Assembly (NCBI GenBank): GCA_030429365.1
Contig: JAUIEW010000001.1
Coordinates: 1,864-65,863 of the forward strand
Direction: 5' to 3'
DNA: 64,000 nucleotides
Source: Phycisphaerae bacterium
Lineage (GTDB): Bacteria > Planctomycetota > Phycisphaerae > UBA1845
Under the pieces are notes generated by a model. That model saw only the letters and a program-made list of their open reading frames with translations. It was not told the DNA's origin and searched no databases. Shown piece after piece: positions 25,241 to 53,277 of this stretch; the stretch's first letter is position 1, and each line of letters begins with the position of its first letter. A program made the position numbers and the translations under genes.

Positions 25241-25660
25241 ATGCAGGTTACAGACTTACCCCATCTGAATGTCACACTTAATGCGCTGTCTGCGATTCTG
25301 CTGTCGGCTGGTTTCTGGGCGATCAAGACGCGGCGGATTCCTGTCCACAAGGCCTGCATGATCGCGGCGATGGCGGTAGCCGGCGCGTTTCTCGTCAGCT
25401 ATGTGATCTACCACACCGCGATCGGTGGCGGTAAGAAATACACGGGCGAGGGCATCTGGCGAACCGTTTACTTTGCGATCCTGATTCCGCACGTGGTGTT
25501 AGCTGCCGTCAACTTGCCGATGGTGATCGTGACGGCCAAGCGCGCATTCAAAGGCGATTTCGAAAGGCACAAGAAGATCGCCCGCATCACCTTCCCGCTG
25601 TGGATGTTCGTATCGGTGTCCGGTGTGGTGGTTTATCTGATGCTGTACATTTGGATGTAG
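25241..25660 (+). CDS. DUF420 membrane protein (oxidase-cluster associated)
   Basis: 139 aa, 4 TM. LNALSAILLSAGFWAIKTRRIPVHKACMIAA...FLVSYVIYH is typical of DUF420. Confidence 0.75.
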   Translation: MQVTDLPHLNVTLNALSAILLSAGFWAIKTRRIPVHKACMIAAMAVAGAFLVSYVIYHTAIGGGKKYTGEGIWRTVYFAILIPHVVLAAVNLPMVIVTAKRAFKGDFERHKKIARITFPLWMFVSVSGVVVYLMLYIWM

Positions 25661-25680
25661 TTGGAACTCGCCTGATGTTC

Positions 25681-26178
25681 TTATGGGGCGCAGTTGAGAT
25701 CGGCGCAGTCCGCGTCGGGTCGAAATTCGCCGCCCAACGCATCGCACTCGTTTTTCGATCGAATCGCGCAATCGGAATTGGCCGCAACGCAGCAGGTGGC
25801 CGTCACAATATCGCCGCAACTCGCGGCCACACAATCCAACCCTGCATCAAAGTAACCGTCCATCGCCTCGCATTCGACGCGGCTTAGGGGTTCGCAGGTT
25901 TCGCCATCGGTCAAACAGCAGCTGCCTTCTTCGCTGCAATCGATTTCGTCGCAGGTTGAATCGGCGCCGGCGAAATTGATGCCCGCATCGGGGCAGTCGG
26001 CCATCGCCACAATCTGACAGTCGTCAACACCAAGACAACAGGCTCCGGTATCCTGCGAGCCGTCGCCATCGGGGTCGTCATCACCACCCGGCGCGGATGG
26101 CTCACACGCCAGTTGAGTCACGATGATCAAGGACAAGATACAAGTCGCTGCGATGAAGCGCCGAGGGCTCTTGGTCAT
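25681..26178 (-). CDS. Secreted or lipoprotein Cys-rich protein made of three six-Cys GxCC modules
   Basis: AAGGAG upstream. Signal or lipobox-like MTKSPRRFIAATCILSLIIVTQLAC. Modules GACCLGVDDC.., GSCCLTDGETC.., ATCCVAANSDC.. match those in the 23-4363 protein. Confidence 0.7.
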   Translation of the reverse strand: MTKSPRRFIAATCILSLIIVTQLACEPSAPGGDDDPDGDGSQDTGACCLGVDDCQIVAMADCPDAGINFAGADSTCDEIDCSEEGSCCLTDGETCEPLSRVECEAMDGYFDAGLDCVAASCGDIVTATCCVAANSDCAIRSKNECDALGGEFRPDADCADLNCAP

Positions 26179-26195
26179 CTGTCACTCCTTTGGAT

Positions 26196-26654
26196 TCAGT
26201 TGTCGCGTGTTAATCCTGCCGCGCAGAGGACGCGGCGCAGGCCCACCACATCGTGTTCCGCAAATGCGCCGATGTCAAAGCTATCGAGGTCCAGGACCGC
26301 CCAGGGCTGATTATCCTCGCCAAACAGCGGTAGAACCACCTCGCTCTGGTCGCGCGGATCGCACGCGACATAGGATTCGCCAAGGTCGCGCACGTCATGA
26401 ACGACGAGGGGTTGGCCCGACAGGAACACCTGCCCGCACGCGCCATGCAGACCGATCGGTGAGCACGCCGGTTTGTTGCGCGATGGACCTAGGATGAGTT
26501 GGTCCGCGCCATCCGGCAGATAGAAACCGACCCACGACACGCCCGTCGGAGAAAGCCGGTCCCACAAGACGTCAGCCACCCGGCGCATGCGCTCTTCGAT
26601 CGTCCCGTCGTCTTCCAGCGATGCCGCGATCGATTCGTAGTCCCGATCTACCAA
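26196..26654 (-). CDS. GAF-domain protein, free methionine-(R)-sulfoxide reductase-like (YebR/fRMsr type)
   Basis: VSWVGFYLPDGADQLILGPSRNKPACSPIGLHGACGQ ... VACDPRDQSEVVLPLF ... AVLDLDS is collinear with YebR-type GAF proteins. A TTG start near 26654 is inferred from the expected N-terminal length. Confidence 0.7.
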   Translation of the reverse strand: MVDRDYESIAASLEDDGTIEERMRRVADVLWDRLSPTGVSWVGFYLPDGADQLILGPSRNKPACSPIGLHGACGQVFLSGQPLVVHDVRDLGESYVACDPRDQSEVVLPLFGEDNQPWAVLDLDSFDIGAFAEHDVVGLRRVLCAAGLTRDN

Positions 26655-30137: not shown

Positions 30138-30202
30138 GTAGGGTGGGCCGTGCCCACCATGTCGTTGTGCAATCAAACGGCGGTGGGCACGGCCCACCCT
30201 AC
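30138..30202. repeat. 65-nt GTAG-headed REP doublet (palindromic)
   Basis: gtagggtgggccgtgcccacc ... ggtgggcacggcccaccctac. Each half is itself a GTAG plus 7-bp hairpin (ggtgggc/gcccacc). A second copy lies at 58713-58776. Confidence 0.85.
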
Positions 30203-31237: not shown

Positions 31238-31726
31238 ATGAATTCCTACGAAGTGTTGCGCCGGGCGGCAGAGCCCATCGGTGTGAAGGCGCTGGCCGCA
31301 AAGCTGCGGTTGTCACCGGCGATGGTTTACAAGTGGTGCCAGGAGTCGGGCAAGGACGACCCCGATGCCAGCGGGGCACGAAACCCGCTGGACCGCATCG
31401 CCGAGGTCTATCGCGCCACCGAATCGGTCGACGTGATCAATTGGCTCTGCCATGAGGCCAACGGGTTCTTCGTGAGCAACCCGTCACCGCTCAACGACGA
31501 CATCGACACCGAACTGCTCCGCAATACGCAGCAACTCGTCACCGAGTTCAGCAAGCTGCTCGCCACCGTGACCAAGTCGATCGAAGACGATGGCATGATC
31601 GAACCGGCAGAAGCCAACCAGATTCGCCAGGCGTGGGAGACGTTGAAACTGACGGCCGAGAGTTTTGTGGTTGGGTGTGAACGCGGGGCTTATTTTTCGG
31701 TGGATGGAGAAAAGCGTGGCTCCTGA
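31238..31726 (+). CDS. Helix-turn-helix protein (phage CII/YdaS-like HTH), hypothetical
   Basis: AAGGAG RBS. VKALAAKLRLSPAMVYKWCQ HTH-like segment. Function unknown. Confidence 0.55.
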   Translation: MNSYEVLRRAAEPIGVKALAAKLRLSPAMVYKWCQESGKDDPDASGARNPLDRIAEVYRATESVDVINWLCHEANGFFVSNPSPLNDDIDTELLRNTQQLVTEFSKLLATVTKSIEDDGMIEPAEANQIRQAWETLKLTAESFVVGCERGAYFSVDGEKRGS

Positions 31727-32015
31727 AGAATTGAAAGGTGACGCGAAGAATGAATGGAAGCTTGTCACTCGGTATCCTGTTTCGGAATACAAGTGCGGAC
31801 TGCGGTCGGGCGATAAGATTCGTTTGATTCGTGATTTGGATATCAGGGATCCAGACGGAAAGGTAGTCAACACGTACCCAGAGGGCGAAGTCTGGGATGT
31901 CATCCACGGCACAGACGAAGATCCTCCCGTGATCTGGCTGGCTCATCCTGATGGAGAGCGGCACACGTGGGACGACAGTGATGTAATCTTTGAGCAGTTC
32001 GCCAAGGTGGAATGA
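31704..32015 (+). CDS. Small acidic hypothetical protein
   Basis: ORF 31665-32015 (TTG). ATG 31704 is preferred. Lower-GC composition and no recognised motif. Confidence 0.4.
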   Translation: MEKSVAPEELKGDAKNEWKLVTRYPVSEYKCGLRSGDKIRLIRDLDIRDPDGKVVNTYPEGEVWDVIHGTDEDPPVIWLAHPDGERHTWDDSDVIFEQFAKVE

Positions 32016-32060
32016 CGCATCGGCGTTCGAACCGACCATGTCCTCATTCACGAGGTTCTG

Positions 32061-32288
32061 ATGCAGCCGAATACGACAATTGAACTTGATCCAGATGAAG
32101 CGCTCGTCTTTTTTGATTGGATCCATAGGTTCAACAACAGCGACGACATCGAGTTCGAAGATCAGGCTGAACAGCGCGTGCTTTGGGACATTGAAGCAAT
32201 CCTAGAGAAGTCTCTTGCAGCAGTCATGAACCCCGAATATGCACGGAAACTTGCGGAGGCACGTTCCAAAGTCAGGGACCGAGAGTAA
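32061..32288 (+). CDS. Small acidic hypothetical protein
   Basis: 75 aa. GAGG lies 5 nt upstream of the ATG. LDPDEALVFFDWIHRF...AEQRVLWDIEAILE. Confidence 0.45.
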   Translation: MQPNTTIELDPDEALVFFDWIHRFNNSDDIEFEDQAEQRVLWDIEAILEKSLAAVMNPEYARKLAEARSKVRDRE

Positions 32289-32308
32289 AAAGGCTCGCGG
32301 TTTTGGTG

Positions 32309-32340
32309 CGGGTACCCCATCCTTCAGGGTGGGGGACTGA
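32309..32340 (+). repeat. Solo arm of the GGGTGCCCC...GGGGGACTGA hairpin family
   Basis: gcgggtaccccatccttcagggtgggggactga, 19 nt upstream of the thrC ATG. Confidence 0.8.
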
Positions 32341-32359: not shown

Positions 32360-33619
32360 ATGAGTTCATCGTCTATGTCGGCGCAGTTTGTTTCTTATGT
32401 TCGCCAGTTGCGGTGCGTGAATTGCGGCGCGGTCTACCTTCCGGAAAAAGTGTCATATACCTGTCCCTCGTGCGGGCCCGACGTTGGCATTCTTGATGTC
32501 GAGTACGACATGGATGCCGTCGCCCGCGATTTGGCGATTTCCGACTTGCTCGATGGGCCGCAGAATCACTGGCGGTATGGGCCTTTGCTTCCGGTGACGG
32601 CCCACCACATTGGCGCGCATTGGCCGATCGGTTGGACGCCGATGGTCGACGCGCCGCTGCTCGCGAAACTCTGCGGTGTGAAACGACTTCGCCTCAAGGA
32701 TGATTCCCGCAATGCTTCGGGTTCGTTCAAGGATCGGGCGTCGAGCATCGGCGTGGTGCGGGCGGCAGAATCCGGCGCGAAGGCGATCGCATGCGCTTCG
32801 ACGGGCAACGCAGCCGTCAGTCTTGCGGCGTGTTCGGCGATGGCGTCGATGCCGGCATACATTTTCGTGTCGCAGCGCATCCCCGAAGGCAAGTTGGCCC
32901 AACTGCTTATCTATGGTGCGACGGTTTTTCGCGTCAATGGCAGCTATGACGATGCGTACAAACTCTGTGCGTCGGCGTGTGAAGCGTTTGGCTGGTACAA
33001 CCGCAACTGTGCATACAACCCGTACCTCGTCGAAGGCAAGAAGACCGGCGGGCTGGAGATCGCCGAGCAATGCATGACCGATCCGCCTGACTGGGTGGCG
33101 ATGAGCGTGGGGGACGGCTGCTCGATCGCTGGGGTGGCCAAGGGTTTGAAGCAGATGGCCGAGTTGGAGTTAATCGACTGGTCGACGCGGTTGCTGGGGG
33201 TGCAGGCGGCTGGCGTGGCGCCGATTCAGGCGATCTTTGAAACCGGTGAAATGGGCAACGCGTCGGGCGATACGTTCGCCGACAGCATCAACTGCCCGGT
33301 GCCGCGTAATATCAAGAAAGCCGTGTCAGCCGTCCGCGATTCCGAGGGGGCGTACAACTCGGTGACGGACGATGAAATCCGCTGGGCGATGCGCGAGGTG
33401 GGTCGACTTGCGGGCATCTTCGCAGAACCGGCCGCAGCCGCAGCCGTCGCCGGAGTGGCCAAAGCCGCGCGGGATGGCGTCATCGATTCGAAGGCGTCGG
33501 TTGTCGCGTACATCAGCGGCAACGGTTTGAAAGACACCCCCGCTGCCATCAGCGCAGCCGGCGCACCCATCGACATCGCGCCCAACCTCGACGAAGTCAA
33601 ATGCGCCGTGAGCGCCTAA
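32360..33619 (+). CDS. thrC: Threonine synthase with N-terminal zinc ribbon
   Basis: CVNCGAVYLPEKVSYTCPSCG, PLP motif NASGSFKDRASS, and full-length ThrC collinearity. AAAGGAAG RBS. Confidence 0.9.
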   Translation: MSSSSMSAQFVSYVRQLRCVNCGAVYLPEKVSYTCPSCGPDVGILDVEYDMDAVARDLAISDLLDGPQNHWRYGPLLPVTAHHIGAHWPIGWTPMVDAPLLAKLCGVKRLRLKDDSRNASGSFKDRASSIGVVRAAESGAKAIACASTGNAAVSLAACSAMASMPAYIFVSQRIPEGKLAQLLIYGATVFRVNGSYDDAYKLCASACEAFGWYNRNCAYNPYLVEGKKTGGLEIAEQCMTDPPDWVAMSVGDGCSIAGVAKGLKQMAELELIDWSTRLLGVQAAGVAPIQAIFETGEMGNASGDTFADSINCPVPRNIKKAVSAVRDSEGAYNSVTDDEIRWAMREVGRLAGIFAEPAAAAAVAGVAKAARDGVIDSKASVVAYISGNGLKDTPAAISAAGAPIDIAPNLDEVKCAVSA

Positions 33620-33640
33620 GTGTGTACAAGTCACATAGAC

Positions 33641-33802
33641 CGGGTGCCCCATCCTTGAGCGCAGCGGAAGGGTGGGGGACTGACCGAGTTCTCAGAGATT
33701 ATCAATTCACGAGTTTTGAAGATTGCTCGAGTGTGTGTGGGGGGTTGGACTGCTTGATTTTTGTTTACATCAGTCCCCCACCCTGGAAGGGCGGGGCACC
33801 CG
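33641..33802. repeat. Inverted hairpin doublet element (BIME/MITE-like), copy A
   Basis: Left arm cgggtgccccatccttgagcgcagcggaagggtgggggactga. AT-richer 85-nt core. Right arm tcagtcccccaccctggaagggcggggcacccg. Sits between convergent thrC and the epimerase gene. Confidence 0.85.
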
Positions 33803-33815
33803 CGCATGATTAATT

Positions 33816-34763
33816 TCAATCTAGATTGCGGAACCACTTTACGAAGTTGGTTAGGCCTTCGTCGATGTGGGTTGATGGGTTGTAGCCCAGTTCTTTCTTG
33901 GCCAGGGTTACATCGGCGAAGGTTCGATCGACGTCGCCGGGTTGGGTTGGCAGGCGGTTGATGACGGCTTGCTTGCCGAGCGCTTTTTCGATAGCGGCGA
34001 TTAACTCGTCGAGTCGGATGGGTTGCGATTCGCCGAGGTTGTAAATCCGGTAGCCGTCGCATCGCTCGATCGAGCGGACGACACCATCGATGATGTCATC
34101 GATGTACGTGTAGTCGCGGCTGGTGCTGCCATCGCCGAATACCGGGATGGGCTCGCCCTCTTCGATGAGCTTGGTGAACTTGTGGATCGCCAGGTCGGGA
34201 CGCTGACGGGGTCCGTACACGGTGAAGAATCGCAGGCAGGTGACGCTCATATCGAACAGGTGGGCGTACGTGTGGGCGATCAGTTCCGTCGCTTTTTTGC
34301 TGGCTGCGTAGGGCGAAATGGGAAAATCGACGTTGTCGCTTTCGGCGAACGGGATCTTCTTGTTGTTGCCATACACGCTGGAACTGCTGGCGAGAATGAA
34401 CTTGGGGCACTTGGCGTTGCGGGCTGCGTCGAGCATCACGGTCGTACCGCCAACGTTGACATCCTGACAACGCTGCGGTTCGACGATCGACGGGCGAACA
34501 CCTGCACGGGCGGCTAAATGCACCACGGTTTCAACGTCACCCGCAAACAACTTCGCGACAGCATCGGCATCGCGAATGTCGCCTTCATGCATCGCAAACG
34601 AATCGTGGTCGAGGCATTGCGCGAGGTTTTTGCGTTTGATCGCCGGGTCGTAGAAGTCGTCGAAGTTGTCGAACCCGATGACCGTGCGGTTCTGTTCGAG
34701 TAAGCGTTCACACAAATGCGAGCCGATGAAGCCAGCCGCTCCGGTGACGATGATGGCGCCCAT
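33816..34763 (-). CDS. NAD-dependent nucleotide-sugar epimerase (UDP-glucuronate 4-epimerase-like)
   Basis: IIVTGAAGFIGSHLCERLL..VIGFDNFDDFYDPAIKRKNL, and YAASK catalytic motif. Confidence 0.8.
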   Translation of the reverse strand: MGAIIVTGAAGFIGSHLCERLLEQNRTVIGFDNFDDFYDPAIKRKNLAQCLDHDSFAMHEGDIRDADAVAKLFAGDVETVVHLAARAGVRPSIVEPQRCQDVNVGGTTVMLDAARNAKCPKFILASSSSVYGNNKKIPFAESDNVDFPISPYAASKKATELIAHTYAHLFDMSVTCLRFFTVYGPRQRPDLAIHKFTKLIEEGEPIPVFGDGSTSRDYTYIDDIIDGVVRSIERCDGYRIYNLGESQPIRLDELIAAIEKALGKQAVINRLPTQPGDVDRTFADVTLAKKELGYNPSTHIDEGLTNFVKWFRNLD

Positions 34764-34771
34764 GCTATTTC

Positions 34772-36085
34772 CTAAATCGTTACTTTGGGCCGGCCTATGC
34801 AGTGGTATTCAAACCCTTGCTTGGCCAGGCTGTGGCGGTTGTAGAGGTTGCGGCCATCAAAGATGACCGGTGACAGCAGGCGCTCCTTGATCATGTTGAA
34901 GTCGGGCGTGCGGAACTCCTGCCAGTCGGTGAAGATCACCAGTGCATCGGCATCGTGTAGGGTTTCGTAGCCGTCATCAACGTATTCGATGATGTCGCCC
35001 AACTCGGCGCGGGTGGTTTCGATCGCTTCCGGATCAAACGCGCTGACTTTGATTCCGTTCTCGACGAATAGTCGAATGCAATCGAGGGCCGGCGATTCGC
35101 GAACGTCATCGGTCCGGGCTTTGAACGCAAGCCCCCAGACCGCAAGCTTGGTGGTTTTGGTGCGATCACCGAAGTAGCGCAGGATGCCTTCGGCAAAGCG
35201 CATCCGCTGACGGTGGTTGACGTCGTGAACCGCTTCCACGATCGACATGGGATAGTCGCTTTCCTGCCCCATGGCGATGATGGCTTGAACGTCTTTCGGA
35301 AAACACGATCCGCCGTATCCAACGCCGGCGAACAGAAATGCCGGACCGATACGGGTGTCCGTTCCAACGCCGCGGCGCACGAGTTCAACGTCGGCTCCCA
35401 CGCGATCGCACAATCCGCTCATTTCGTTCATAAAGGAAATCTTGGTGGCGAGCAGGGCGTTGGAGGCGTACTTGGTCATTTCCGCGCTGGCAGGATCCAT
35501 CACCAGGATGCGGTCGGCTGTCCGCATGAAGGGGTTGTAGATTTCCTTCATGATCTCCACGACTGCGGGATTGTCGGCACCGATGACCACGCGGTCGGGC
35601 TTCATGAAGTCTTCGATCGCCGCGCCTTCTTTCATGAATTCGGGATTGCTGACATAGTCGAATTTGTGCTCGGTGTTTTGGGTGATGCGCTCGGAGACCA
35701 ACTTGTTTGTGCCTACAGGAACGGTGCTTTTCATCACAACGATGCGATAGCCATCCATGGTGCGGGCGATGGTTTCGGCCACGTTCATGATCGCGGACAG
35801 GTCAGCCGATCCGTCTTCTGCCGGCGGTGTGCCGACCGCGAGAAAGATCACCACCGAGTTTGCGACGGCGTATTCGAGGTCGGTCGTGAAGCTGAGGCGA
35901 TTGCCTTTGACGTTGCGTTGAACGATTTCCGCGAGACCCGGTTCATAGATCGGGATGTCGCCATTTTTAAGGGCTTCGATTTTGGATTCGACTTTGTCGA
36001 CGCAGATGACGTGATTGCCGCCGTCGGCAAGGCATGTGCCCGCGACCAATCCAACGTATCCAGTACCCACCACTGCGATTTTCAT
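34772..36085 (-). CDS. ugd: UDP-glucose 6-dehydrogenase
   Basis: MKIAVVGTGYVGLV ... GGSCFPKDV catalytic Cys motif. 437 aa. Confidence 0.9.
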   Translation of the reverse strand: MKIAVVGTGYVGLVAGTCLADGGNHVICVDKVESKIEALKNGDIPIYEPGLAEIVQRNVKGNRLSFTTDLEYAVANSVVIFLAVGTPPAEDGSADLSAIMNVAETIARTMDGYRIVVMKSTVPVGTNKLVSERITQNTEHKFDYVSNPEFMKEGAAIEDFMKPDRVVIGADNPAVVEIMKEIYNPFMRTADRILVMDPASAEMTKYASNALLATKISFMNEMSGLCDRVGADVELVRRGVGTDTRIGPAFLFAGVGYGGSCFPKDVQAIIAMGQESDYPMSIVEAVHDVNHRQRMRFAEGILRYFGDRTKTTKLAVWGLAFKARTDDVRESPALDCIRLFVENGIKVSAFDPEAIETTRAELGDIIEYVDDGYETLHDADALVIFTDWQEFRTPDFNMIKERLLSPVIFDGRNLYNRHSLAKQGFEYHCIGRPKVTI

Positions 36086-36723
36086 GAGAGTTGGTTCCGA
36101 TTTTGTGGAGACACGCCGCTGTGTGTGGCGACGTTTCTTTTCGATTCGATCATGGTTTCCGGCTTGTCGATGGCTTCGAGCAACGGCGCGCTGACCTCAG
36201 CCAACACCGATTGGCCAAGGATGTCTACGTTGACCGCCAACCGCAATTTGCCGAGTTGTTTGACAACTTGACCCTCGACGCCTTCAAGCGGTCCACCGAT
36301 GACACGCACCCACTCGCCCACGCGAATGCCGTTGTGTTGTTCGAACTCGGTATCCGTACCGATGACGCGGTGCACGCTGCGCAGCTGGGTGACGAACTGT
36401 TTCTGAGCCGCGACGAACAGCATGTTGGCGACACGGTTGGTCGACAGCGCCCGATACCGTTGTGTTTCGGTCGCATTGAGAAAAACATAACCGGCGAACA
36501 CCGGTACGGTTGAATACGACTTGCGCCCCGTTCGGCGGCTTTGCGTTATTTTCTGTTTGAGCGGCAGGTAGTTGAAAATGTCCAACTGCTGCAATTCGCG
36601 GGCGAGGATTTTTTCATTGCGCGAGCGCGTGTGCGCAACCCACCACGTTCCTTCGAGCCCATCGGGAATCGCCACCTCGGGATCGGGCGAGATTGTCTCC
36701 ATTTCCAGATGAGTCAAGGGCAT
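36082..36723 (-). CDS. NusG-family transcription antiterminator paralog (RfaH/UpxY-like)
   Basis: NGN-like WWVAHTRSRNEKILARELQQLDIFNYLPL..VFAGYVFL and KOW-like VGEWVRVIGGPLEGVEGQVV. 4-nt overlap with the ugd start. Confidence 0.8.
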   Translation of the reverse strand: MPLTHLEMETISPDPEVAIPDGLEGTWWVAHTRSRNEKILARELQQLDIFNYLPLKQKITQSRRTGRKSYSTVPVFAGYVFLNATETQRYRALSTNRVANMLFVAAQKQFVTQLRSVHRVIGTDTEFEQHNGIRVGEWVRVIGGPLEGVEGQVVKQLGKLRLAVNVDILGQSVLAEVSAPLLEAIDKPETMIESKRNVATHSGVSPQNRNQLS

Positions 36724-36729
36724 CGCAGA

Positions 36730-37683
36730 CTATTGATCCTTTGTTTGGCCATCCAGAATCTGGCGGAAGAATGCCACGGTCTTGGAGAGCCCTTCTTCGA
36801 GATTGACAGTCGGTTGCCAACCAAGCCGCTGGCGGGCTCGATCGGTCACGGCGCATCGCCTCACGGGGTCGTCCGGCGGCAGCGGTTTGTGCACGATTTC
36901 GAGATCGCGTCCGATGACTTTCCCGAGTGTTTGAACGAGATTCAGCATGGTGGTTTCGTGCGGGCTGCCGACGTTGACTGGTTCGTGGGCGTCGTCGCCT
37001 TCGTAATTCATCAGCCTGACCATGCCATCGATCAAGTCGCTGACGAAGAGGAAGCTGCGCGTCTGCGAGCCGTCACCATAAACGGTGAGCGGTTTGCCCT
37101 GAAGCGCCTGCACGACGAAGTTTGAAACCACGCGACCATCACCGACCGCCATCCTTGGTCCGTAGGTGTTGAAGATGCGGATGATGCGGATGTCGACATT
37201 GTTTTGATGGTGGTAATCCATCATCAGCGTTTCGGCGATGCGCTTGCCTTCATCGTAACAGCTGCGCAGTCCAATCGGATTGACGTTGCCCCAGTATTCT
37301 TCGGGTTGGGGATGGACGGCTGGGTCGCCGTAAACTTCGCTCGTCGACGCTTGAAGGATTCGCGCGTGCACGCGCTTGGACATGCCGAGCATGTTGAGCG
37401 CTCCCATCACCGAAGTCTTTACCGTTTTCACCGGATTGTGTTGGTAGTGAATTGGCGATGCCGGACACGCGAGGTTGAAGATCCAATCGACTTCAAGCAG
37501 GATCGGGTTCACCACGTCGTGGCGAATGATTTCAAAATCGGGTCGGCCGCTGAGATGGGCGAGGTTCTTTTTTGCACCCGTGTAAAAGTTATCCAATGCG
37601 ATGACATCGTGTCCGTCGGCCAGCAACCGATCGCACAGATGACTTCCCAGAAAACCGGCTCCTCCGGTGACGAGTACGCGCAC
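36730..37683 (-). CDS. UDP-glucuronate decarboxylase (UDP-xylose synthase)
   Basis: [44 protein letters not shown] ... YDEGKR. High collinearity with UXS. Confidence 0.85.
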
Positions 37684-37685
37684 GT

Positions 37686-38810
37686 TTAGGACCTCCCTGT
37701 CGCCTCAGCCGGTATCGCTTCGGATTGATGCTGCACAATGCAACCGGCCACTCGCCTTACATCGGCATCGTCGAGCATTGGATGCACCGGAAGCGAGAGA
37801 ATCCGCTTTGCCGTCGCCTCGCTGACGGGGAAATCACCTTCACTGTATTCCAAGTACTGAAAACAGGGCTGTAAATGCAGGGGGATCGGGTAGTAGATGC
37901 CCGAACCGATCGACGCGTCGGTGAGGTGCTGACGCAGGCCATCACGGTCGTCGGCGAGGATCGAATACTGGTGGTAACACGACTGGTTGTGTTCGGCGAT
38001 TTTGGGCGTCTGGATCGACGGGACGTTCGCGAGCAACTCGTCGTATTGTTTGGCGATGGCCCTGCGCCTGCCGTTGAACGATTCCAGGTGCGGCAGCTTC
38101 GCCGAAAGGATCGCGGCTTGCATGGTGTTGAGTCGAAAGTTGCCGCCGATGAACTGGTGATGGTACTGATCGGTTTGGCCGTGATTGCGCAACTGTCGCA
38201 CCCTTTCAGCCAATGCGTCGTCGTTGGTCGTGACCAAGCCGCCTTCACCAAAACCGCCGAGGTTCTTGGTTGGGTAGAACGAGAAGCACGCGGCATCGCC
38301 CAGCGCGCCGGCATATCGATTCTTGTATGTGGCGTCCACCGCTTGCGCGGCGTCTTCGATGACTCTCAAACCGGCGCTTGCGGCGATGTCATTGATTGCG
38401 TCCATGTCGGCGCACTGTCCGAACAGATGGACCGGAATGATGGCTTTGGTTCTGGGGGTGATCGCGGCTTGGATCTTTGCCGGATCGATGTTGAACGTGT
38501 CGGGATCGATGTCGACGAAAACCGGTTTTGCGCCGGTGCGGTGAACGCAGCCAGCCGTCGCGAAAAACGTAAACGGCGTCGTGATGACTTCGTCTCCCGC
38601 GGCGATCTCGCAAGCCATCAATGCGACGAGGATCGCATCGGTTCCACTCCCGATGGCGATCGCGTGTTTGGCGCCGGTTCGTTTGGCGAGTTCTTCTTCG
38701 AGCACACCAACGTGCGACCCGCCAACAAAGTGTTGCGATTCGAGGACTTCGTCGATGGCGGTTCTGACGCCGTCTTCAACGAGCGAAAACTCCGATTTGA
38801 GATCGAGCAT
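37686..38810 (-). CDS. DegT/DnrJ/EryC1/StrS family sugar aminotransferase
   Basis: From ATG 38810: [31 protein letters not shown] ... [10 protein letters not shown] (PLP lysine). The upstream extension to 38990 is rejected. Confidence 0.85.
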
Positions 38811-39058
38811 CGTGATGGGTTTCAAGCGTATTCTCCGACCGCTGGTGTCGCGCCGACATGTCATTCCCGATGAATCAGCCGTCACGACAATTTCCGCATC
38901 CGGTGCGTTGGACGAAGGTGACGTGACGCGGGCGGCATTATAGAAATGCGCTGTCGCCGCGGCAACCAAGCCGGCGCTGTGATCTCGCAATCGAGGTCAT
39001 CAACGATACAAATCGGGACTCGAACGGCACGTCAAACGCACCTTTCGCGATGTCAGCC

Positions 39059-41308
39059 CTACGCCTGATCTTCGTCGTCTTCGCGTTTGTCGTCGTTGGC
39101 CGGTAGGGCACGCTGCGAGCCGTCTTCCTCTTCGTACTGGTACTCGTAGAACGTTCGCAGTTGCTCGCGGAAGTAGCCACCACGCTGTGCCTGTGCTCCG
39201 TTGAGTACGGCTCCAAAGACGTGGGCGTTGGCGTGTCGCAGCATGGTGCAGGCACGCTGGGCGACGCCGCGCGAATTTTCCTTTGCCCTGAACACGATGA
39301 TTGTGCCATCCACCTGCGATGCCAGTGCGATAGCGTCGCTGGCGAGCAGGACCGGTGGCGAGTCGAAGATGACATGGTCGTATTGTTTTGACGCTTCCGC
39401 GACGAATTCGCGGCAGAGATCGCTGCCGAGCAGTTCGGCTGGATTTGGCGGAATCGGTCCGCTGCCAATGACGTCGAGGTTGGCCATGTCGGTATGGTGC
39501 ACGCAGTCTTTGAGCGTGGCTTCACCGATCAGGATGTTGGTCATCCCGCGGGCGTTGACGTTCTTGAAGATGCGATGCATCCGCGGGCGCCGGAAGTTCG
39601 TGTCGACCAGGAGCACGCGCTTGCCGCTGACCGCAAGCGATGTTGCCAGGTTGGAAGCGACGGTCGTTCGTCCGTCTTCCGGTCGCGGGCTCGTGATCAG
39701 GATCGAGCGAATGCGGTCAGCCGGGGCGCTGAACTGGAGATTGCCGCGCACCGTTCTAAATGCTTCTGTAACCATCGAGTGGGGCGCGTCGCGGACGGCT
39801 GTCTCGACGTGTTCGATTTCAACTTCTTCGTCGTCCACATCCGGAATGGAACCCAACATGGCGATGCTGAGGTGGCGCACGATGTCTTGCGGAGTTCTGA
39901 CCGACGTGTCAATGAGTTCGAGGCCAATCGCCAGTCCGACAGCCCCGCCGAGTCCGAGAATGACGAGTCCGGGCAACAACAGCAGTGACGGGAAACTTCG
40001 TTCCAAGGGTGGTGATGCCTGGACGACTTGGAACACGCGGATTGCGGCGCGCTCGCGGACGATACGCTCGATTTCTCGAATGTACTCGTCGATGCGGTTT
40101 TGAATTTCAATGAGCAGGTCGCGTTCATTCAAAAGCGCGACGTATTCGGAAATCTTGCGGTCTAGGTCGGCTTGCTCAGCTTCAACTTCCTGCAGTTTTT
40201 CCTGAGCGGCCAGCAAACTGTTTGTCGCATTCAGATATGCGGTTTCGGCCTGTTCGGACTTATATTCCAGCGTTTCGCGGAGCTTGTTGGACCGGATTTT
40301 CTCCAGCTGCGTGCGGACTTCGACGAGGCGATTCTTCATCGTCTTGTATTCGCGATGATTGACGCCGAACTGCCGCTCTTTCAGGCCAAGCTCTTGTTCA
40401 AGCAAGAATACCTGGTTGTCGTATTGCAGGACTCGAGGGTCGTTTTCGACAATGAGCCGGTCTTCGGGCGTGATAGGCATGCCCGCGGGGTCGCTGTAAA
40501 TGTCCCGCAGACTCTTCATCTCCTTGACCTGCAACTCGTAGAATTGCACGGTCTTCTGGGCTTCGCTGAGTTTCTCGCGCAACGGTCCCTGGCCCAGCCG
40601 ATCCTGTTGTTGGAAGGCCTCGCCGGCTGGGATCGTGGATACGAATTCACTGATTTGCTGATTCTTCTTGACGAGTTGATCTTTGTAACCGGCTTGTTCG
40701 CGCTTGTAGTCCGTCAGTTCCTGGCGGTAGACACTTGAGGCGCGTTCTTTGATTTCTTCCAGGTATGTCTTGACGACCGTGTTGACGATGATGGCTGGGT
40801 CGGACGATGCTGCGGTGGAGATAGAAACCTGAATGTAGTTGGAGTCCCGGATGGGGCTGGCACTGAGATCCTCCTCCAATTCCAGCAGGTGTTCGTCTGA
40901 GTCAAGGCTCTTGTACCACTTGGTGTTTCGTACTTCCGGATCTTTGAGCGCTTTTCGCAAGACAGGAAATGACTTGATGTACAGTGCCTGGCTTTGCACG
41001 AATCGCGTAAATGATTCGTCGGCCATCGCATCCGGAGTCACCGCCATTTCGCGTTTGGGCGCATCACTAATGCATTCGACAAGCGATTGGGCGCTGTATT
41101 TGGGGAACTTGAAGTACATCAAGAAAAACAGCCCAACGCCCATGCCGCTAAAGAGCACTGACAGGATGATAATGGTCACCAACCTTTGGCGCAACATGCC
41201 CAGAATGTCGGCTGGCGTAATGCTCTTTGAAGCAGCCTGCGGCGTGTGCGCAGTGACCGGGCCTGGAAGCGGTATCTGTTCTTGAATTGTTGTCGGTAGC
41301 GTGGTCAT
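39059..41308 (-). CDS. Polysaccharide co-polymerase / BY-kinase-like protein (Wzc/GumC type) with atypical P-loop
   Basis: N-terminal TM, Wzz-like coiled-coil periplasmic region, second TM, then cytoplasmic P-loop domain ILITSPRPEDGRTTVASNLA..VLLVDTNFRRP..VIFDSPP. Tyr-rich tail YFREQLRTFYEYQYEEE. Confidence 0.85.
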   Translation of the reverse strand: MTTLPTTIQEQIPLPGPVTAHTPQAASKSITPADILGMLRQRLVTIIILSVLFSGMGVGLFFLMYFKFPKYSAQSLVECISDAPKREMAVTPDAMADESFTRFVQSQALYIKSFPVLRKALKDPEVRNTKWYKSLDSDEHLLELEEDLSASPIRDSNYIQVSISTAASSDPAIIVNTVVKTYLEEIKERASSVYRQELTDYKREQAGYKDQLVKKNQQISEFVSTIPAGEAFQQQDRLGQGPLREKLSEAQKTVQFYELQVKEMKSLRDIYSDPAGMPITPEDRLIVENDPRVLQYDNQVFLLEQELGLKERQFGVNHREYKTMKNRLVEVRTQLEKIRSNKLRETLEYKSEQAETAYLNATNSLLAAQEKLQEVEAEQADLDRKISEYVALLNERDLLIEIQNRIDEYIREIERIVRERAAIRVFQVVQASPPLERSFPSLLLLPGLVILGLGGAVGLAIGLELIDTSVRTPQDIVRHLSIAMLGSIPDVDDEEVEIEHVETAVRDAPHSMVTEAFRTVRGNLQFSAPADRIRSILITSPRPEDGRTTVASNLATSLAVSGKRVLLVDTNFRRPRMHRIFKNVNARGMTNILIGEATLKDCVHHTDMANLDVIGSGPIPPNPAELLGSDLCREFVAEASKQYDHVIFDSPPVLLASDAIALASQVDGTIIVFRAKENSRGVAQRACTMLRHANAHVFGAVLNGAQAQRGGYFREQLRTFYEYQYEEEDGSQRALPANDDKREDDEDQA

Positions 41309-41365
41309 GGTGATTGCTCTGATACTGTCTCTGGCGCAATGTCTGCGTTCATGCGCTTTCGGTTT

Positions 41366-42292
41366 CTATTCCGCCTCTGGTTCCTCTTCGACATCCACGA
41401 CGAGGTTGGATAGGACGTATCCAACCAGGGCAAACAAGCCGAGTGCGATCGGCAACATTGCCAATCCAAGTAATCCATGGGCAGTGCCCTGAGCCAGGTC
41501 TTCGCGTCCGTAAACGTGGACGACGCCTGTCACAAGGACACGAATCATGTTGCAAAACACAGCGATGGGGACGCAGCAGATGATCATGATGACGCGCTGC
41601 CACAATGGTCGATCGCCCAAATACGCCATCGCCACGCCCAAGCTGCAGAATGCCATCATCAAGCGCATCCCGCTGCATGCCTCTTCGACGTTAAGCGAAC
41701 CACGTTCGACTGTGGCCCGCTCGTATTCGATAACAACGCCCTGCACGCTCGTGTAAACTCCGGGCAGCAGTCCCAACACCCAACCCGAAACCTGCGATGC
41801 GAATTCCCGCAATGGGAGCGTGAGATTGAAGTAAAGCGATCGCGGCAGTGGCATCGCAAACACGAGATAGCAGATCGGAAACCACGCGACGCGGAATATC
41901 TGGTTGCCCCAGATCAAGAGCACCAATCCCAGCATGCACGGGATCATCGCGAACAACCGTGGATAGTCATAACTCCACGCGCGGGCGCCATAGTTGAGGC
42001 ACATGCCTGCGATGATCAGCAACGTGCCCAGGTAGTTTGGCTTAATGACCGCAGTCTTGAGCTGGTCTCGGTGGATGGCCAGAAAATAAAGGCTGAAGAC
42101 CGGCACCAGCCACCCGTGTGACCAGTTCCCGTCCGTCTTCCACTTGGAGACCATGCCATCAATGGGGGAATGAAAAACAAAACCGATGATCGCACCGAGT
42201 ATCAGGCATTGCAGCGCAACGATCCACAGAGCCGAACCCGAGGATGAACCATCCCGGTTGATCGAAAGACTCGGTGAAGCGTCACTCATCAT
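41366..42292 (-). CDS. Exosortase family protein (EpsH-like)
   Basis: Multi-TM protein with EEACSGMRLMM (catalytic Cys motif) and FCNMIRVLVTGVVHVYG (conserved Arg/His region). Start set at ATG 42292, clear of the upstream gene. Confidence 0.8.
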   Translation of the reverse strand: MMSDASPSLSINRDGSSSGSALWIVALQCLILGAIIGFVFHSPIDGMVSKWKTDGNWSHGWLVPVFSLYFLAIHRDQLKTAVIKPNYLGTLLIIAGMCLNYGARAWSYDYPRLFAMIPCMLGLVLLIWGNQIFRVAWFPICYLVFAMPLPRSLYFNLTLPLREFASQVSGWVLGLLPGVYTSVQGVVIEYERATVERGSLNVEEACSGMRLMMAFCSLGVAMAYLGDRPLWQRVIMIICCVPIAVFCNMIRVLVTGVVHVYGREDLAQGTAHGLLGLAMLPIALGLFALVGYVLSNLVVDVEEEPEAE

Positions 42293-42344
42293 CTCATCCA
42301 CCAATCGAGTTGGCGGTCTCCCAGGCCGTTGGTTCTGGTTGCGT

Positions 42345-43934
42345 CTATCTGAAGAGATTCGGGAACCGGCTGCCGAATCCGCTCGCTTGCGTGACCGCCG
42401 GGTTTGGCTGGCCAGCGAAACTGTCAATGTCGGCAAAGTTACGGTCGTAAACGAATCCAAACCCGTAGGTCAGGCGGAACGCGTTTCGGATCACGGCGAG
42501 GAACGAAGCTGCAGGATGTGTACCGACCAAAATGAGGTCGTTGTTCTTCAGCAGCAAATCCTGTTCCTTGCCTGCAAAGATCGCGTCGAGATTGACCTGA
42601 TGCATTTCTTCACGATCACCGTACCGGCGATAGACCGTGCAGCGGTTCGGCCAAGCCAGCGGCGACAGGTTGCCAGCCGACGCAATGGCGGTCTTGAGCG
42701 TGATTCGGCGACCCGTCAATGAATAGGCGCCGGGACGCGACACCTGACCCATCATATAATATTCACCAACCTCGCCAGCGAGGATGCGAATCTTGTCACC
42801 ACCACGGACGATCACGTTTTGTCGTGGATCACCGTTGCGAAGTGCTTCCGCGTCGATGCGAATCACTCTGCCAATGGCGTCATCGCCGGCCAACCGCTCC
42901 CAGTCGATCGCAGGTTCTGCCTCGTCCTCGGCAGGCATCTGGGGCGCATCGTCCTGATTGTCTTCGATGGTGTTGTACGGCGTCGAACCAGTGGCGGATG
43001 TGTTGGTTGGTGCGTCAGCTTCGACCCATTCACCTTCAGCCGTAAATACCCATCGCGACTGAGTCGATGCGCTACCGGGTGCTTGTTGTTCGAGTGATGA
43101 ACTGTTGGCGGGATTTCGCGTTCCCGCGGCGGCTTCGAGCAGTTCCTCGTGCTGTTGCTGCGATGTGGATGCGCCCCCGGGACCGCCCGTCACGCCATCT
43201 GACATCGTGAATGTCGATTGGTGGCGTCGCGTATTCGCACGAGCCAGTTTCTTGTTCGATTGAGTCCGGCCGCGTACTTGCAGTCTGTCTGATGCCTCCT
43301 GTGCAGCGGTGCTTGGTGGATTTCGGATAATGTAAACTTCGGTGGCGGTCTCTGGAAATCCGCCGGCAATGTTGAGCGCTTCGAGCAAGCTCGTGTTGGG
43401 TCTTGGAACCGGGTAAACGTTGGGGCCTGGCGTTGCACCGAAGAGGACGAAAGTCAGGTTGCGTCGAACCAAAGGTTCAACGATGACGACCGGATCATCA
43501 ACGATGACCTGCCGCTGCCTGAGTTGCGTCTTGATCTCTTCGGTAATCTCAGTGCGGGTCATTCCACTGACCCGAATTTGACCGAGCACTGGAAGAATGA
43601 TTGTGCCAATGTCGTCAATGGTTGCCTGAAGACCTGTTTCGGTATTGCTGGCCAGCAATTCAAAAATACGAACGCTCAAGGAGTCGCCGGGTCCATACTT
43701 GTACTCTTCATATAGCGGGACAAGGTCCTCGGGGGTCGGGTCCGTCGCCCCAGGGATTCCTGACGGCGTGTCCTGAATGCTCAGTGACGTACGAATATCC
43801 AACGTGGCCTCGCGCCGAAAATTGCCCACTTGCGTTGGATCGAGCCAGCTATTGAAAATGCTGTTGCAGCCGACCTGCGTCAGCAGAATGCCGAATAAGG
43901 CCATCCAAACAGCACATTTATTCCATTTTCGCAT
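42345..43934 (-). CDS. Polysaccharide export protein (Wza-like: Poly_export + SLBB domains) with low-complexity insert
   Basis: Lipobox-like LLTQVGC. YKYGPGDSLSVRIFEL...GTIILPVLGQIRVSGMTRTEITEEI. SLBB-like GEYYMMGQVSRPGAYSL. Start is 43934 or 43967. Confidence 0.85.
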   Translation of the reverse strand: MRKWNKCAVWMALFGILLTQVGCNSIFNSWLDPTQVGNFRREATLDIRTSLSIQDTPSGIPGATDPTPEDLVPLYEEYKYGPGDSLSVRIFELLASNTETGLQATIDDIGTIILPVLGQIRVSGMTRTEITEEIKTQLRQRQVIVDDPVVIVEPLVRRNLTFVLFGATPGPNVYPVPRPNTSLLEALNIAGGFPETATEVYIIRNPPSTAAQEASDRLQVRGRTQSNKKLARANTRRHQSTFTMSDGVTGGPGGASTSQQQHEELLEAAAGTRNPANSSSLEQQAPGSASTQSRWVFTAEGEWVEADAPTNTSATGSTPYNTIEDNQDDAPQMPAEDEAEPAIDWERLAGDDAIGRVIRIDAEALRNGDPRQNVIVRGGDKIRILAGEVGEYYMMGQVSRPGAYSLTGRRITLKTAIASAGNLSPLAWPNRCTVYRRYGDREEMHQVNLDAIFAGKEQDLLLKNNDLILVGTHPAASFLAVIRNAFRLTYGFGFVYDRNFADIDSFAGQPNPAVTQASGFGSRFPNLFR

Positions 43935-44599
43935 CGTCTTGGCTTCCGGACGCCTGATTGCGTTCATTTTGGTCCAATTCAGTTGGCCAGACACCGCGCC
44001 GCCCCGCGCCGCGCAGTTGGAAATGAGGTGTCTTGAGCATAACCTCATTGAAATAAATGCTTTACGGGAATAGCCGCCGCCCGTCAAGCGAGATCAAGAT
44101 GCACGTAGACCATCTCCTGAGTGCACAGGCCCGGTTATTATCGGCATTCGTAACCTGTCTAGTTTAGGGCGCTTAGGACAATTGAGGCACCTTCAAAGCC
44201 CCCAATATCGCGGATATTCTCGCCTATGCATAGTTCGTTTGAGGGTTAGAACTTGTTCGGCGTGAAATCACAAGCTGGCCAGATTTCATCACCCAGTGGA
44301 AAATCGGTCGCACAGCGCCTCATTTTGATCTGCCACGATTCGAACAGAATGGCGTCTGGTTGCAAGGTCGGCACGGAGGATGAAGAGGGGGGATGAAGAG
44401 AATGCTCGAACGTCTTGAGGGCTTCCATCTGCCACGTGTCTTTAGAGGATCGCGACTGGTCGGAGGTTGGATTTCAACTCGGTGATTGACCGCCCACACC
44501 GGCGGGCTACACTCGGATTCTTGGTTGATCGCCACTTTGTCGCGACGCAAAGCGGCTGACGGGGCGATCCTGTACTTTGATCATCAAACGGAGGTCTTC

Positions 44600-44777
44600 G
44601 ATGAGACGGTTTATCTCGTCCCGCAGTCTACCAATGCTCGCCCTTTCGGTGATGGCGATTTCGGTTCTTTCGGGTTGCACGACCAACAATGCATCCGTCT
44701 CATTCCTTGATTTCGTCAATACGATTCTCTTGGGAATCACGGCGGCTGGCGGTTTGGTCTTGATCAACAACGTGTAG
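44600..44777 (+). CDS. Candidate small lipoprotein with C-terminal hydrophobic anchor
   Basis: GGAGG lies 6 nt upstream of ATG 44600. MRRFISSRSLPMLALSVMAISVLSGC lipobox, with C-terminal ILLGITAAGGLVLI. It competes with antisense ORF 44507-45058, which shares third-codon positions. Confidence 0.4.
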
Positions 44778-45048
44778 TCGGCTTGGCAGATTTGCCGCAC
44801 TTTTTGAATCTCGAGCCGGCGTTGCACCACCAGTTCATCCTGTGCAGCACGGCTTTGTCGGACCCATGCACCGCTGAAGGTGTCGATTGACGCGTTCAGC
44901 GGTGCATTTATACTCGGAATCAACGTCAGCGTTGCCGCCAGGCGAATTTCCAATCCACCACGGTCATTCAGTGGTGCGGTCAAGGGATGGCTGACTCCGT
45001 ATGTTTGAAACTTGCTCATCGAATTTGGCAGCAGTGACGGAGAATGCC

Positions 45049-47307: not shown

Positions 47308-47338
47308 GAAACCCCGAATTTCAAAGACGACACGAGCG

Positions 47339-47486
47339 CGGGTGCCCCATCCTTCCAGGATGGGGGACTGATGAGCGCTCGAGGTCTCTCGATTCTCAAT
47401 GATCGTGTGTGTCGATACCAGTTCTGTGGTTATCGCGCATTTGTCAGTCCCCCACCCTTCCGCTGCGCTCAAGGGCGGGGCACCCG
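47339..47486. repeat. Inverted hairpin doublet element, copy B
   Basis: Left arm gcgggtgccccatccttccaggatgggggactga. Right arm tcagtcccccacccttccgctgcgctcaagggcggggcacccg. Lies between the HEAT gene stop and the leuS start. Confidence 0.85.
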
Positions 47487-47630
47487 GTATCCGGTGGTTC
47501 TACGCATGCTGGCATCGCTGGTGTTGTTGTGAATCATTTCCGCGTCAGATAAACTCCTCCACTCCATTTATAAACGCGATCGCGAGGGCACTTGCTCGGC
47601 GGCGCGAGACCCTGGCAATTGCGGTGTATC

Positions 47631-50501: not shown

Positions 50502-50521
50502 TCAACGCGGATCAAAAACAT

Positions 50522-51091
50522 ATGAGTCAGGAACTCGAAATCAAGATCAAGGTGGATTCGCACGATCCGGTCCGCGAAACGCTTCAGCAGAGTGGCGGCG
50601 AATTTCAATGCTGCGTTTTGGAAGTCAATCGATTGTTCGATGACATGAAAGGCGACCTGCGCAAGCGCGGGGTAGCGTTGCGCATCCGGGGGCGCAAGTC
50701 GATCAAGGGTCCCGAACAATACGCCTGCCTGACGTACAAGGGGCCGGCACACGGCGGCTACTACAAGTCGCGAGAAGAGCACGAGGTCAACGTTTCGGAC
50801 GAGGCGTCGCTGCTATTGATCCTCAGGAACCTTGGGTACCGTGAGACGTTCCTGTTTGAAAAGCGCCGCGAGACCTGGAAACTCGGCGAAGCGACGGTGG
50901 AACTGGACGAAGTGCCGGATCTGGGAACGTTCGTCGAAGTGGAAGCAGCCAGTCGCGATGAGATCGATGCGATCTGTAGCCAACTGGGTCTGGATCGAAG
51001 TGCCGCCGTCGAGGAAACCTACGCGGGCCTGCTCGCTGCCAATGCGGTCGACAAGACCTTTTCACGCATGGAAGTCCGCTTCAAACCTTAG
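50522..51091 (+). CDS. CYTH-domain protein (class IV adenylate cyclase / triphosphatase-like)
   Basis: ELEIKIKV ... ALRIRG ... LTYKGP ... REEHEVNV ... VELDEVPDLGTFVEVE fits the CyaB/CYTH pattern. Confidence 0.75.
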   Translation: MSQELEIKIKVDSHDPVRETLQQSGGEFQCCVLEVNRLFDDMKGDLRKRGVALRIRGRKSIKGPEQYACLTYKGPAHGGYYKSREEHEVNVSDEASLLLILRNLGYRETFLFEKRRETWKLGEATVELDEVPDLGTFVEVEAASRDEIDAICSQLGLDRSAAVEETYAGLLAANAVDKTFSRMEVRFKP

Positions 51092-51460
51092 CTGGTGTTC
51101 CTAAATTCACAGGCAGATGTGACGTTTTCAGCGATTCTAAGTGTTTTATTTTACGGCACTTGACAGAAATCGCCCATCACCCCACATTACGCGGATCGGG
51201 CACGGTTCTGGGGTGCAATCCCCACATTCCGCGTATCCGAATTGAATCAAAACTCCCGACGTCGCAGAGCACCATGCGTCGTTCGATCCATAGGTGATTT
51301 CGATGATGAATCGTGCGGGTCTGACTGTCTTATTGATCGTTTCCTGTGTCGCGTGTCTGGCACTCGTTGCCCGGGCGGTTGGGCCCACGCGCGTGACCGA
51401 TTCGACGCCTCTCGTTGCGCAGCAAAACAACTAGAACATTCCTAATCCAGTCGTAGCCAC

Positions 51461-51510
51461 AGCGCCGTCATTCCCGCGCGGCGGCGATCGGGCGCGGGAA
51501 TGACGGCGCT
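51461..51510. terminator. Perfect 19-bp inverted repeat between convergent transcription units (possible bidirectional terminator / REP)
   Basis: agcgccgtcattcccgcgc - 12-nt loop - gcgcgggaatgacggcgct. No T-tract. Shares its core with 4477-4545. Confidence 0.5.
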
Positions 51511-51527
51511 TATGAATCTATGGCGCT

Positions 51528-53055: not shown

Positions 53056-53107
53056 CGCGAGGGGCAGATAGTGCACGAGAGTTGTGCCACTGCTCTGTGA
53101 GCAGTGC

Positions 53108-53252
53108 CGGGTGCCCCGCCCTTTCAGGGTGGGGGACTGACATTCACTCGTGGAATCAAGAATTGGTTTTGATATTAGTGCATGTGTTGAAAGGGATATC
53201 CTAAAGACTTTGACGTTCATCAGTCCCCCAGCCTGGAAGGCTGGGGCACCCG
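53108..53252. repeat. Inverted hairpin doublet element, copy C
   Basis: Left arm ccgggtgccccgccctttcagggtgggggactga. Right arm tcagtcccccagcctggaaggctggggcacccg. Lies between convergent genes. Confidence 0.85.
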
Positions 53253-53277
53253 CGCGCATGAAGTTGTGGTCATCCCC

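Follow-up and report, generated by a model that had tools for sequence, protein, structure and literature searches.

A REPIN consists of two REPs that stand in inverted orientation around a spacer, and RAYTs are HUH/Y1 endonucleases that act on single-strand DNA. REPIN-RAYT systems attract interest as replicators that persist in bacterial genomes for long periods and are inherited vertically; to our knowledge, they have been studied almost exclusively in Proteobacteria. Part of the basis for the mechanism of Escherichia coli TnpA_REP reportedly lies in work by Ton-Hoang from 2012. Described systems comprise the REPIN-RAYT systems of Pseudomonas fluorescens SBW25 and other Proteobacteria (Bertels & Rainey 2011, PMC3116915; Bertels et al. 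2017, PMC5581495) and the REPs and BIMEs of E. coli with TnpA_REP (PDB 4ER8; Messing et al. 2012, PMC3479197). In the GTAG superfamily (Di Nocera et al. 2013, PMC3733652), which corresponds to the GT[AG]G guide of Quentin et al. 2018 (PMC6006769), an unpaired tetranucleotide lies directly 5' of the stem, and two REP families of this type with their RAYTs, GTAG-20 and GTAG-21, were reported in Rhodopirellula baltica, a member of the same phylum as the DNA studied here (Di Nocera et al. 2013, PMC3733652). The CGTC superfamily has a CGTC tag, A/T at the first two stem pairs and a CCA tail, and is without a transposase (Di Nocera et al. 2013, PMC3733652). TIRtrons, or TIRYTs, are RAYT-like genes with long inverted repeats that share GGGGWSAS (Di Nocera et al. 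2013, PMC3733652) and form subclass 2.1 of Quentin et al. 2018 (PMC6006769).

In a 64 kb stretch of DNA (hereafter the window, by which the whole stretch analysed is meant), we characterised a family of hairpin arms that occur in doublets and singly in intergenic gaps. Because RAYT genes flanked by arms of this same family are present in related genomes, we consider it very probable that the arms are REPs and the doublets REPINs, that is, non-autonomous elements which would depend on a RAYT encoded a single time elsewhere in the genome.

Seven arms are present in the window, forming three inverted doublets (REPINs A, B and C) and one solo arm, all of them intergenic (Table 1). A sequence-only reading of this DNA had already described three full copies and a solo arm at these positions, with arms facing each other across an AT-richer core, with every copy in an intergenic gap (two of them between convergent genes), with a long-loop arm nearly identical between the left side of REPIN A and, inverted, the right side of REPIN B, and with no RAYT gene in the window. 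Our analysis bears this description out: the sequences read as described, all spacers fall below the GC content of the window (0.572), the two long-loop arms are 96% complementary over 46 nt, and neither tblastn nor a family HMM run against the six-frame translation (no match at E<=10) revealed a RAYT-like ORF in the window. REPIN A lies between convergent genes for a PALP enzyme and an epimerase, and REPIN C between convergent genes for a zincin-like peptidase and an ABC-2 permease; REPIN B, between a HEAT-repeat gene and leuS, and the solo arm, between a 75-aa ORF and the PALP gene, separate genes of the same strand. The solo arm starts 20 nt past the stop of the 75-aa ORF, its end lying 19 nt short of the start codon (ATG) of the PALP-family gene. 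The polarity of the doublets is fixed, in that every one combines an arm of the form CCGGGTG...GACTGAC with one of the form GCGCGGGTG...GACTGAT. The short blocks that had been said to be shared by the cores hold only in part: the cores resemble one another only weakly (z about 2, with a maximum of 4.2), but a slight likeness, in the form of faint common blocks beside the arms, appears when the doublets are oriented by polarity. Together with the fixed polarity, these blocks suggest that the doublet is the ancestral unit. The three doublets fold better than their shuffles (z = -3.0, -5.2 and -6.8).

Table 1. Arms and spacers of the hairpin repeat family in the window; orthologs are those in locus L068 of Phycisphaerae bacterium AMR_MDS_0959.
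Feature	Position	Strand	Description	Score (bits)	Identity to L068 ortholog
Solo REP arm	32309..32340	+	GCGGGTACCCC ATCC TTCA GGGT GGGGGACTGA	46.1	
REPIN A left arm, long-loop type	33641..33683	+	10-bp stem, loop GAGCGCAGCGG	42.4	
REPIN A spacer	33684..33769	.	86 nt, GC 0.43; weakly like other spacers		
REPIN A right arm, short type	33770..33802	-		52.2	
REPIN B left arm, short type	47339..47371	+	perfect stem CCCCATCCT/AGGATGGGG	51.2	97%
REPIN B spacer	47372..47443	.	72 nt, GC 0.50		65%
REPIN B right arm, long-loop type	47444..47486	-		43.5	98%
REPIN C left arm, short type	53108..53140	+		53.1	94%
REPIN C spacer	53141..53219	.	79 nt, GC 0.37		60%
REPIN C right arm, short type	53220..53252	-	compensated stem CCCCAGCC/GGCTGGGG	52.7	91%

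The hairpin arms of the window measure 31-42 nt and have the consensus 5'-GGGTG / CCCC-stem-loop-GGGG / GAC(T)GA-3', laid out as 5'-(C)GGGTG-CCCCnnCC...loop...GGnnGGGG-GACTGA-3'. The motif GGGTRCCCCNNCC has 8 matches in the window compared to 1.8 expected, a count attained in none of 100 shuffles, and all 7 exact window matches of GGGGGACTGA lie inside arms. A covariance model (R1), trained on 65 distinct arms taken from other genomes and the present one, retrieved exactly the 7 arms from the window at 42-53 bits, the next best hit scoring 13.6 bits. Over 65 distinct short arms, 95.7% of the cells in the 9-bp stem are paired, where shuffles give 82.1%, and the stem shows 76 double-sided changes against 22.6, both values being unattained in 500 shuffles and far above those of slid controls, although the arms share descent and are not independent samples, so that these shuffle figures, like the binomial ones, overstate the significance. 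The hairpin signal nevertheless recurs across many lineages despite this kinship. The four outer stem pairs are invariably C-G, and compensatory changes occur at the five inner ones, as pairs 5-9 vary between AT, GC and GT or between CG, GC, TA, TG and so on; the arms are in this respect short palindromes of the REP kind (stem-loops of about 20-45 nt). Wobbles in the stems are strongly asymmetric, with 89 G.T/T.G against 14 A.C/C.A, which identifies 5'-GGGTG...GACTGA-3' as the folding strand. The best-kept parts of the arm are its unpaired flanks, GGGTG and GAC(T/G)GA, the 5' GGGTG being found in >92% of 151 unique arms (92-99% per position), and conservation does not extend farther out.

Scanning species-representative genomes for GGGTGCCCC-N(10-30)-GGGGGACTGA returned at least 112 loci, where about 90 random matches in 596 Gb are estimated to arise by chance. 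The arm consensus is indeed that of a dispersed family, as arms with stems of at least 9 bp are present in 27 or more species-level genomes of Planctomycetota, most of which bear the label Phycisphaerae; the labels include Phycisphaerae, Phycisphaerales, Planctomycetota, Planctomycetales and Planctomycetaceae as well as one 'Alphaproteobacteria' bin and one 'bacterium'. Several relatives have at least 10-17 arms each in the retrieved loci, among the matches listed. Matches in other phyla (Acidovorax, Gemmatimonadales, Firmicutes and others) are singletons among the matches listed, where they mostly show just the 4-bp stem that the pattern imposes and never a stem of more than 8 bp; singletons with such short stems are consistent with chance, and we rejected them as true members. 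Viral contigs yielded 2 matches in 2.9 million, so that the family is not carried by phages. It can safely be said that the family appears widespread in Phycisphaerae and perhaps beyond, with class labels taken as recorded. As a separate observation, L031 and L106 (JANQQE010000014.1; MAG 'Alphaproteobacteria bacterium IP29b_bin.190') are 78-86% identical to the window over several kb and carry the same REPs, and their Alphaproteobacteria label is probably wrong.

The inverted pair is the main arrangement of the arms, not only at 3 of the 4 sites in the window but also across the retrieved loci, where 32 of 42 adjacent arm pairs are of the (+)/(-) type with tags facing outward and spacers of 7-110 nt. 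Gene context was derived from crude gene calls (longest ORFs with the leftmost start), by which 64 of 139 elements fell inside ORFs; the ORF-internal cases that were inspected reflect over-extended start codons or antisense ORFs, and for this reason we relied on the gap-located subset and on a stricter count of arms deep within frames. By these calls, the 67 gap-located elements divide into 26 in convergent, 36 in tandem and 5 in divergent gaps, even though 27% of gap bases belong to divergent gaps, and deep positions within open frames of at least 300 codons account for no more than 17 of 191 arms. The family is thus extragenic, as at all 4 sites in the window, and located mostly downstream of genes.

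A Y1 transposase gene whose ends match the arms, which the sequence-only reading had named as one of the things to look for, was found in relatives: at 12 of 12 related loci that encode an HUH/Y1 protein of 191-193 aa, the gene is flanked by arms of the family, with inverted arms on both sides at 11 of them and two arms, both downstream, at L121. One such ORF, of 191 aa, is found in L049 (Phycisphaerae bacterium OFTM112), with a (+) arm at 4188-4218 on one side and a (-) arm at 4836-4866 on the other. Its product scores 31.7 bits against Pfam Y1_Tnp (cut-off 23), and the NCBIfam model NF047646, 'REP-associated tyrosine transposase', gives 89.6 bits for L049 and 98.8 bits for L122, the only two proteins scored (cut-off 80), while the IS200 model stays below its own cut-off for the scored RAYTs. 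The sole PDB match of the L049 protein is E. coli TnpA_REP 4ER8 (E = 2.9e-5), and the alignment runs through PEH.H and Y.(4)NPV..G.V...W.(W/F)S. Across 7 homologues, PEH[VIF]H (the HUH histidines), Y.H.NP (with the catalytic tyrosine) and W.WSS show no variation.

Two of these loci, L006 and L032, were found by tblastn in the fetched loci and are arm-flanked, and nine more (L114, L117, L118, L120, L121, L122, L124, L125 and L126) were picked by protein similarity alone, at 47-69% identity, and have arms within about 20-130 bp of the gene. The arms next to these genes differ by subtype. The L122 RAYT is flanked by the long-loop arm variant of the window, GAGCGCAGCG; those of L117, L118 and L120 cluster and have GACGGA long-loop arms in common; those of L006 and L032 have CCCCACC(C/G)C-TT arms in common; and next to RAYTs of 47-49% identity the arms retain GTG-CCCCATCC...GGGGTGGGG and differ in their 3' tails. 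Across these loci, RAYT clades and arm subtypes change together. Since the RAYT gene in relatives stands between arms with their tags outward, the doublets of the window look like this unit with 72-86 nt where the gene would be, and a cognate RAYT would, on the evidence of the relatives, be present in the window's own organism.

By analogy with E. coli TnpA_REP and the Pseudomonas REPINs, the RAYT would bind the hairpin on the single strand 5'-GGGTG...GACTGA-3' and would read its unpaired tag, a proposal that the strand-specific asymmetry of the wobbles fits. It would then, by the same analogy, cleave and rejoin single-strand DNA via its tyrosine, now and then copying or excising a doublet. 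The elements settle downstream of genes.

By blastn against the fetched loci, the window is ~90-94% identical to DAORAL010000033.1 of Phycisphaerae bacterium AMR_MDS_0959 (loci L066 and L068), about 80% identical to L031 and about 72% identical to L038. REPINs B and C occupy orthologous sites in L068, with 135 of 142 arm positions (95%) and 105 of 169 spacer positions (62%) identical between both genomes. REPIN A is present also in L031, where its right arm is decaying, and the site of REPIN A in the closer relative L066 holds a different hairpin doublet, indicating turnover. At the solo-arm site, L066 and L031 have an extra (-) arm 24 nt upstream, which in the window was lost alongside an insertion of ~580 bp; a solo arm is also kept between OFTM112 and AMR_MDS_0959, the flanks of which are only about 80% identical. 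Empty sites in relatives, which the sequence-only reading had proposed to look for, did not turn up in clean form: the 200-nt flanks of 155 elements were blasted against all loci, and L038 was compared with window positions 25660-26248 by hand, and among these loci no clean presence/absence pair was found, the candidate sites differing by extra genes or other repeats. The fixation of REPINs B and C at orthologous sites, with spacers that are only ~62% identical, points to window copies that are old and possibly no longer moving. As the arms are conserved without conservation of the spacers, something still constrains them, and this constraint may be recognition by the RAYT, a host function at the RNA or DNA level, or both.

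Other repeats and insertions were observed next to these elements. The ~580-bp segment is specific to the window (31717-32298), contains ORFs at 31704-32015 (103 aa) and 32061-32288 (75 aa), lies just 3' of a phage-CII/YmfL-like regulator gene (31238-31726) and replaces the (-) REP arm and a short linker of L066 and L031; the 75-aa ORF has no Pfam or NCBIfam match and the 103-aa ORF no NCBIfam match. L031 contains, at about 4020-4940, ~900 bp extra between the PALP gene and REPIN A that are absent from both the window and L066, which adds to the evidence that gaps with REPs are hot spots of gene gain and loss. A third, small hairpin repeat, GTGCCACTGCTC(TGTG/ACAG)AGCAGTGGCAC, lies beside REPIN C (53084-53103); this 20-nt copy is bounded by a GTGCC direct repeat and is absent at the orthologous site of L068, which in turn has copies to the right of REPINs B and C that are missing from the window, and a doublet of the same repeat occupies the REPIN A site in L066 (4920-5183). 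Its clean presence/absence polymorphism suggests that it may be a currently mobile element landing beside REP arms. Inside that different doublet of L066 lies a copy (5006-5039) of another short hairpin repeat, CCCCTGGATTCCCGC-NNNN-GCGGGAATGACG, with 94% identity to the window copy at 4467-4500, which is located in the convergent gap 4364-4574 and preceded by a textbook terminator, GGCCCGCC...GGGGCGGGCTTTTTTT, at about 4391-4428. The window also holds a second REPIN family with the canonical GTAG tag, in which GTAGGGTGGGCCGTGCCCACC and its inverted copy stand at 30138-30202 and 58713-58776 around conserved spacers of 23 and 22 nt, respectively; this amounts to 4 arms in the window where 0 are expected, and similar copies exist in L031, L037 and L038. 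Finally, L113 (Logan contig SRR24442552_47478), which encodes the PALP protein of the window exactly, ends 63 nt past the gene, at REPIN A, and many RAYT homologues lie on contigs of about 1 kb; short-read assemblies break at these repeats.

Other explanations for the hairpins have to be weighed against the REPIN reading. One is that the doublets are fossil or domesticated REPs, immobile in this genome, with arms that serve the host as RNA 3'-end or stability hairpins or as protein sites and with a RAYT link that is historical. Such a state would agree with the lack of a RAYT in the window, with the persistence seen for REPINs B and C in a ~90% identical relative, where they stand at orthologous sites and arms are far better kept than spacers, for a solo arm between more distant genomes and for REPIN A in an about 80% identical relative, and with the preference for convergent and tandem gaps, 3' of genes; the strand-specific G.T wobbles, moreover, indicate a folded single strand that could be RNA. 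A role in transcripts fits less well with the make-up of the elements, as each doublet has one arm per orientation, which favours no single transcript direction. The arms are followed by GACTGA and not by a T-tract, and none of 24 terminator-like calls in 33500-53400 lies on an arm, so that an intrinsic terminator was rejected; a known RNA family was likewise ruled out, since Rfam at gathering thresholds has no match to the arms or anywhere in the window, the region around REPIN A giving one sub-threshold chance match. RAYTs with intact catalytic residues are, besides, still flanked by identical arms in many relatives. We therefore regard wholly fossil REPs as rather unlikely, bearing in mind that such a state is compatible with the REPIN explanation and does not exclude it.

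The arms could also be independent regulatory or architectural sites, for instance bound by a nucleoid or supercoiling protein, a role suggested for BIMEs, that arose by convergence or selection. The strong conservation of the unpaired GGGTG and GACTGA across many genomes and at orthologous sites would suit such a protein, but the free, compensated variation of the inner stem fits a shape recognised on a single strand and not a duplex sequence, the wobble asymmetry is specific to one strand and the arms are tied to RAYT genes at all 12 loci, which makes this explanation highly improbable. Still less probability, close to none, is left for classical MITEs, i.e. deletion derivatives of an IS with a DDE transposase whose terminal inverted repeats would be the arms. 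In outline the doublets do look like this, with inverted arms of 33-43 nt at both ends and an AT-richer core of 72-86 nt between them; against this origin, solo arms are common, every arm is itself a co-varying hairpin, and the gene between the arms in relatives encodes a Y1 HUH transposase and not a DDE enzyme. REPINs A, B and C also lack flanking direct repeats, the outside bases being ACATAGAC / CGCATGAT for A, ACACGAGCG / GTATCCGG for B and AGCAGTGC / CGCGCATG for C, and without a target-site duplication, and with a Y1 HUH enzyme as partner, a DDE-type MITE is unsupported and was rejected. Where the sequence-only reading had left the choice between BIME-like paired REPs and a non-autonomous MITE, the paired-REP, non-autonomous part thus stands, now with a link to RAYTs, and both the DDE-type MITE and a strict enterobacterial BIME fall away.

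If the hairpins are REPINs, the intergenic hairpin repeats of the window require no further special explanation in annotation, and the family would account for assembly breaks at such sites in Phycisphaerae organisms. It would extend the REPIN-RAYT system to the Phycisphaerae, members of an under-studied phylum, with a different unpaired tag, and it offers a natural series of co-varying RAYTs and arms, from 47% to 100% RAYT identity, from which one could learn how RAYTs read their guides. A more far-reaching possibility, which we put forward tentatively and with some doubt, is that of an ancient, vertically inherited REPIN-RAYT lineage across the whole of the Phycisphaerae and possibly more Planctomycetota, with a non-canonical guide (5' GGGTG plus 3' GAC(T/G)GA) and with arms under purifying selection in place; if true, this would mean a distinct subclass of RAYT specificity and a role of the hairpins at the level of the host, beyond transposon debris.

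The family, which the sequence-only reading did not recognise, was not found in the literature searched either: searches for the motif strings returned only unrelated papers on primers and human sequences, no paper combining Phycisphaerae with REPs was retrieved, Planctomycetes are unmentioned in Nunvar 2010, and the motif is absent from the text of Di Nocera 2013 and its supplementary text files. The arms fall outside the GTAG superfamily and the GT[AG]G guide, as the position of the unpaired tetranucleotide is taken by GGGTG, which faces outward in the doublets and is of another sequence; they are, in the same way, a different sequence family from GTAG-20 and GTAG-21 of R. baltica, without the GTAG tag. 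Nor do they belong to the CGTC superfamily, for their reverse strand reads TC(A/C)GTC-CCCC, with four G-C pairs first and no CCA, and they are associated with a RAYT. With TIRtrons/TIRYTs they have in common that a RAYT-like gene stands between inverted repeats of 30-45 nt which lack a GTAG tag, and that these repeats are moderately abundant, dispersed and often dimeric. The G-rich inner end of our arms, GGGGGAC(T/G)GA, resembles the TIRYT motif GGGGWSAS, although only 7 of 8 positions match (GGGGACTG or GGGGACGG); in contrast to TIRYT repeats, the present arms are clearly self-complementary hairpins, and the RAYTs described here have 191-193 aa and Y[IML]H.NP, compared to a median of about 238 aa in subclass 2.1. 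With the REPs and BIMEs of E. coli, the family shares inverted REP pairs that are often 3' of genes and a RAYT remotely like 4ER8, but the repeats themselves show no similarity in sequence. What defines a BIME is its enterobacterial Y and Z REP types together with fixed linker motifs; the present family has none of these, so that the two have only the paired-REP architecture in common. From the REPINs of Proteobacteria, the Phycisphaerae family differs by its planctomycetal host, by the tag GGGTG in place of GT[AG]G, by the conserved 3' tail GAC(T/G)GA, by the CCCC/GGGG base of the stem and by long (72-86 nt), poorly conserved spacers, and its mobility would be assumed by analogy. It agrees with them in having inverted REP hairpins around a spacer, doublets that outnumber other arrangements, an extragenic location, a RAYT gene flanked by the same REPs and long persistence at orthologous sites, and it is a new REP/REPIN family of a well-known kind.
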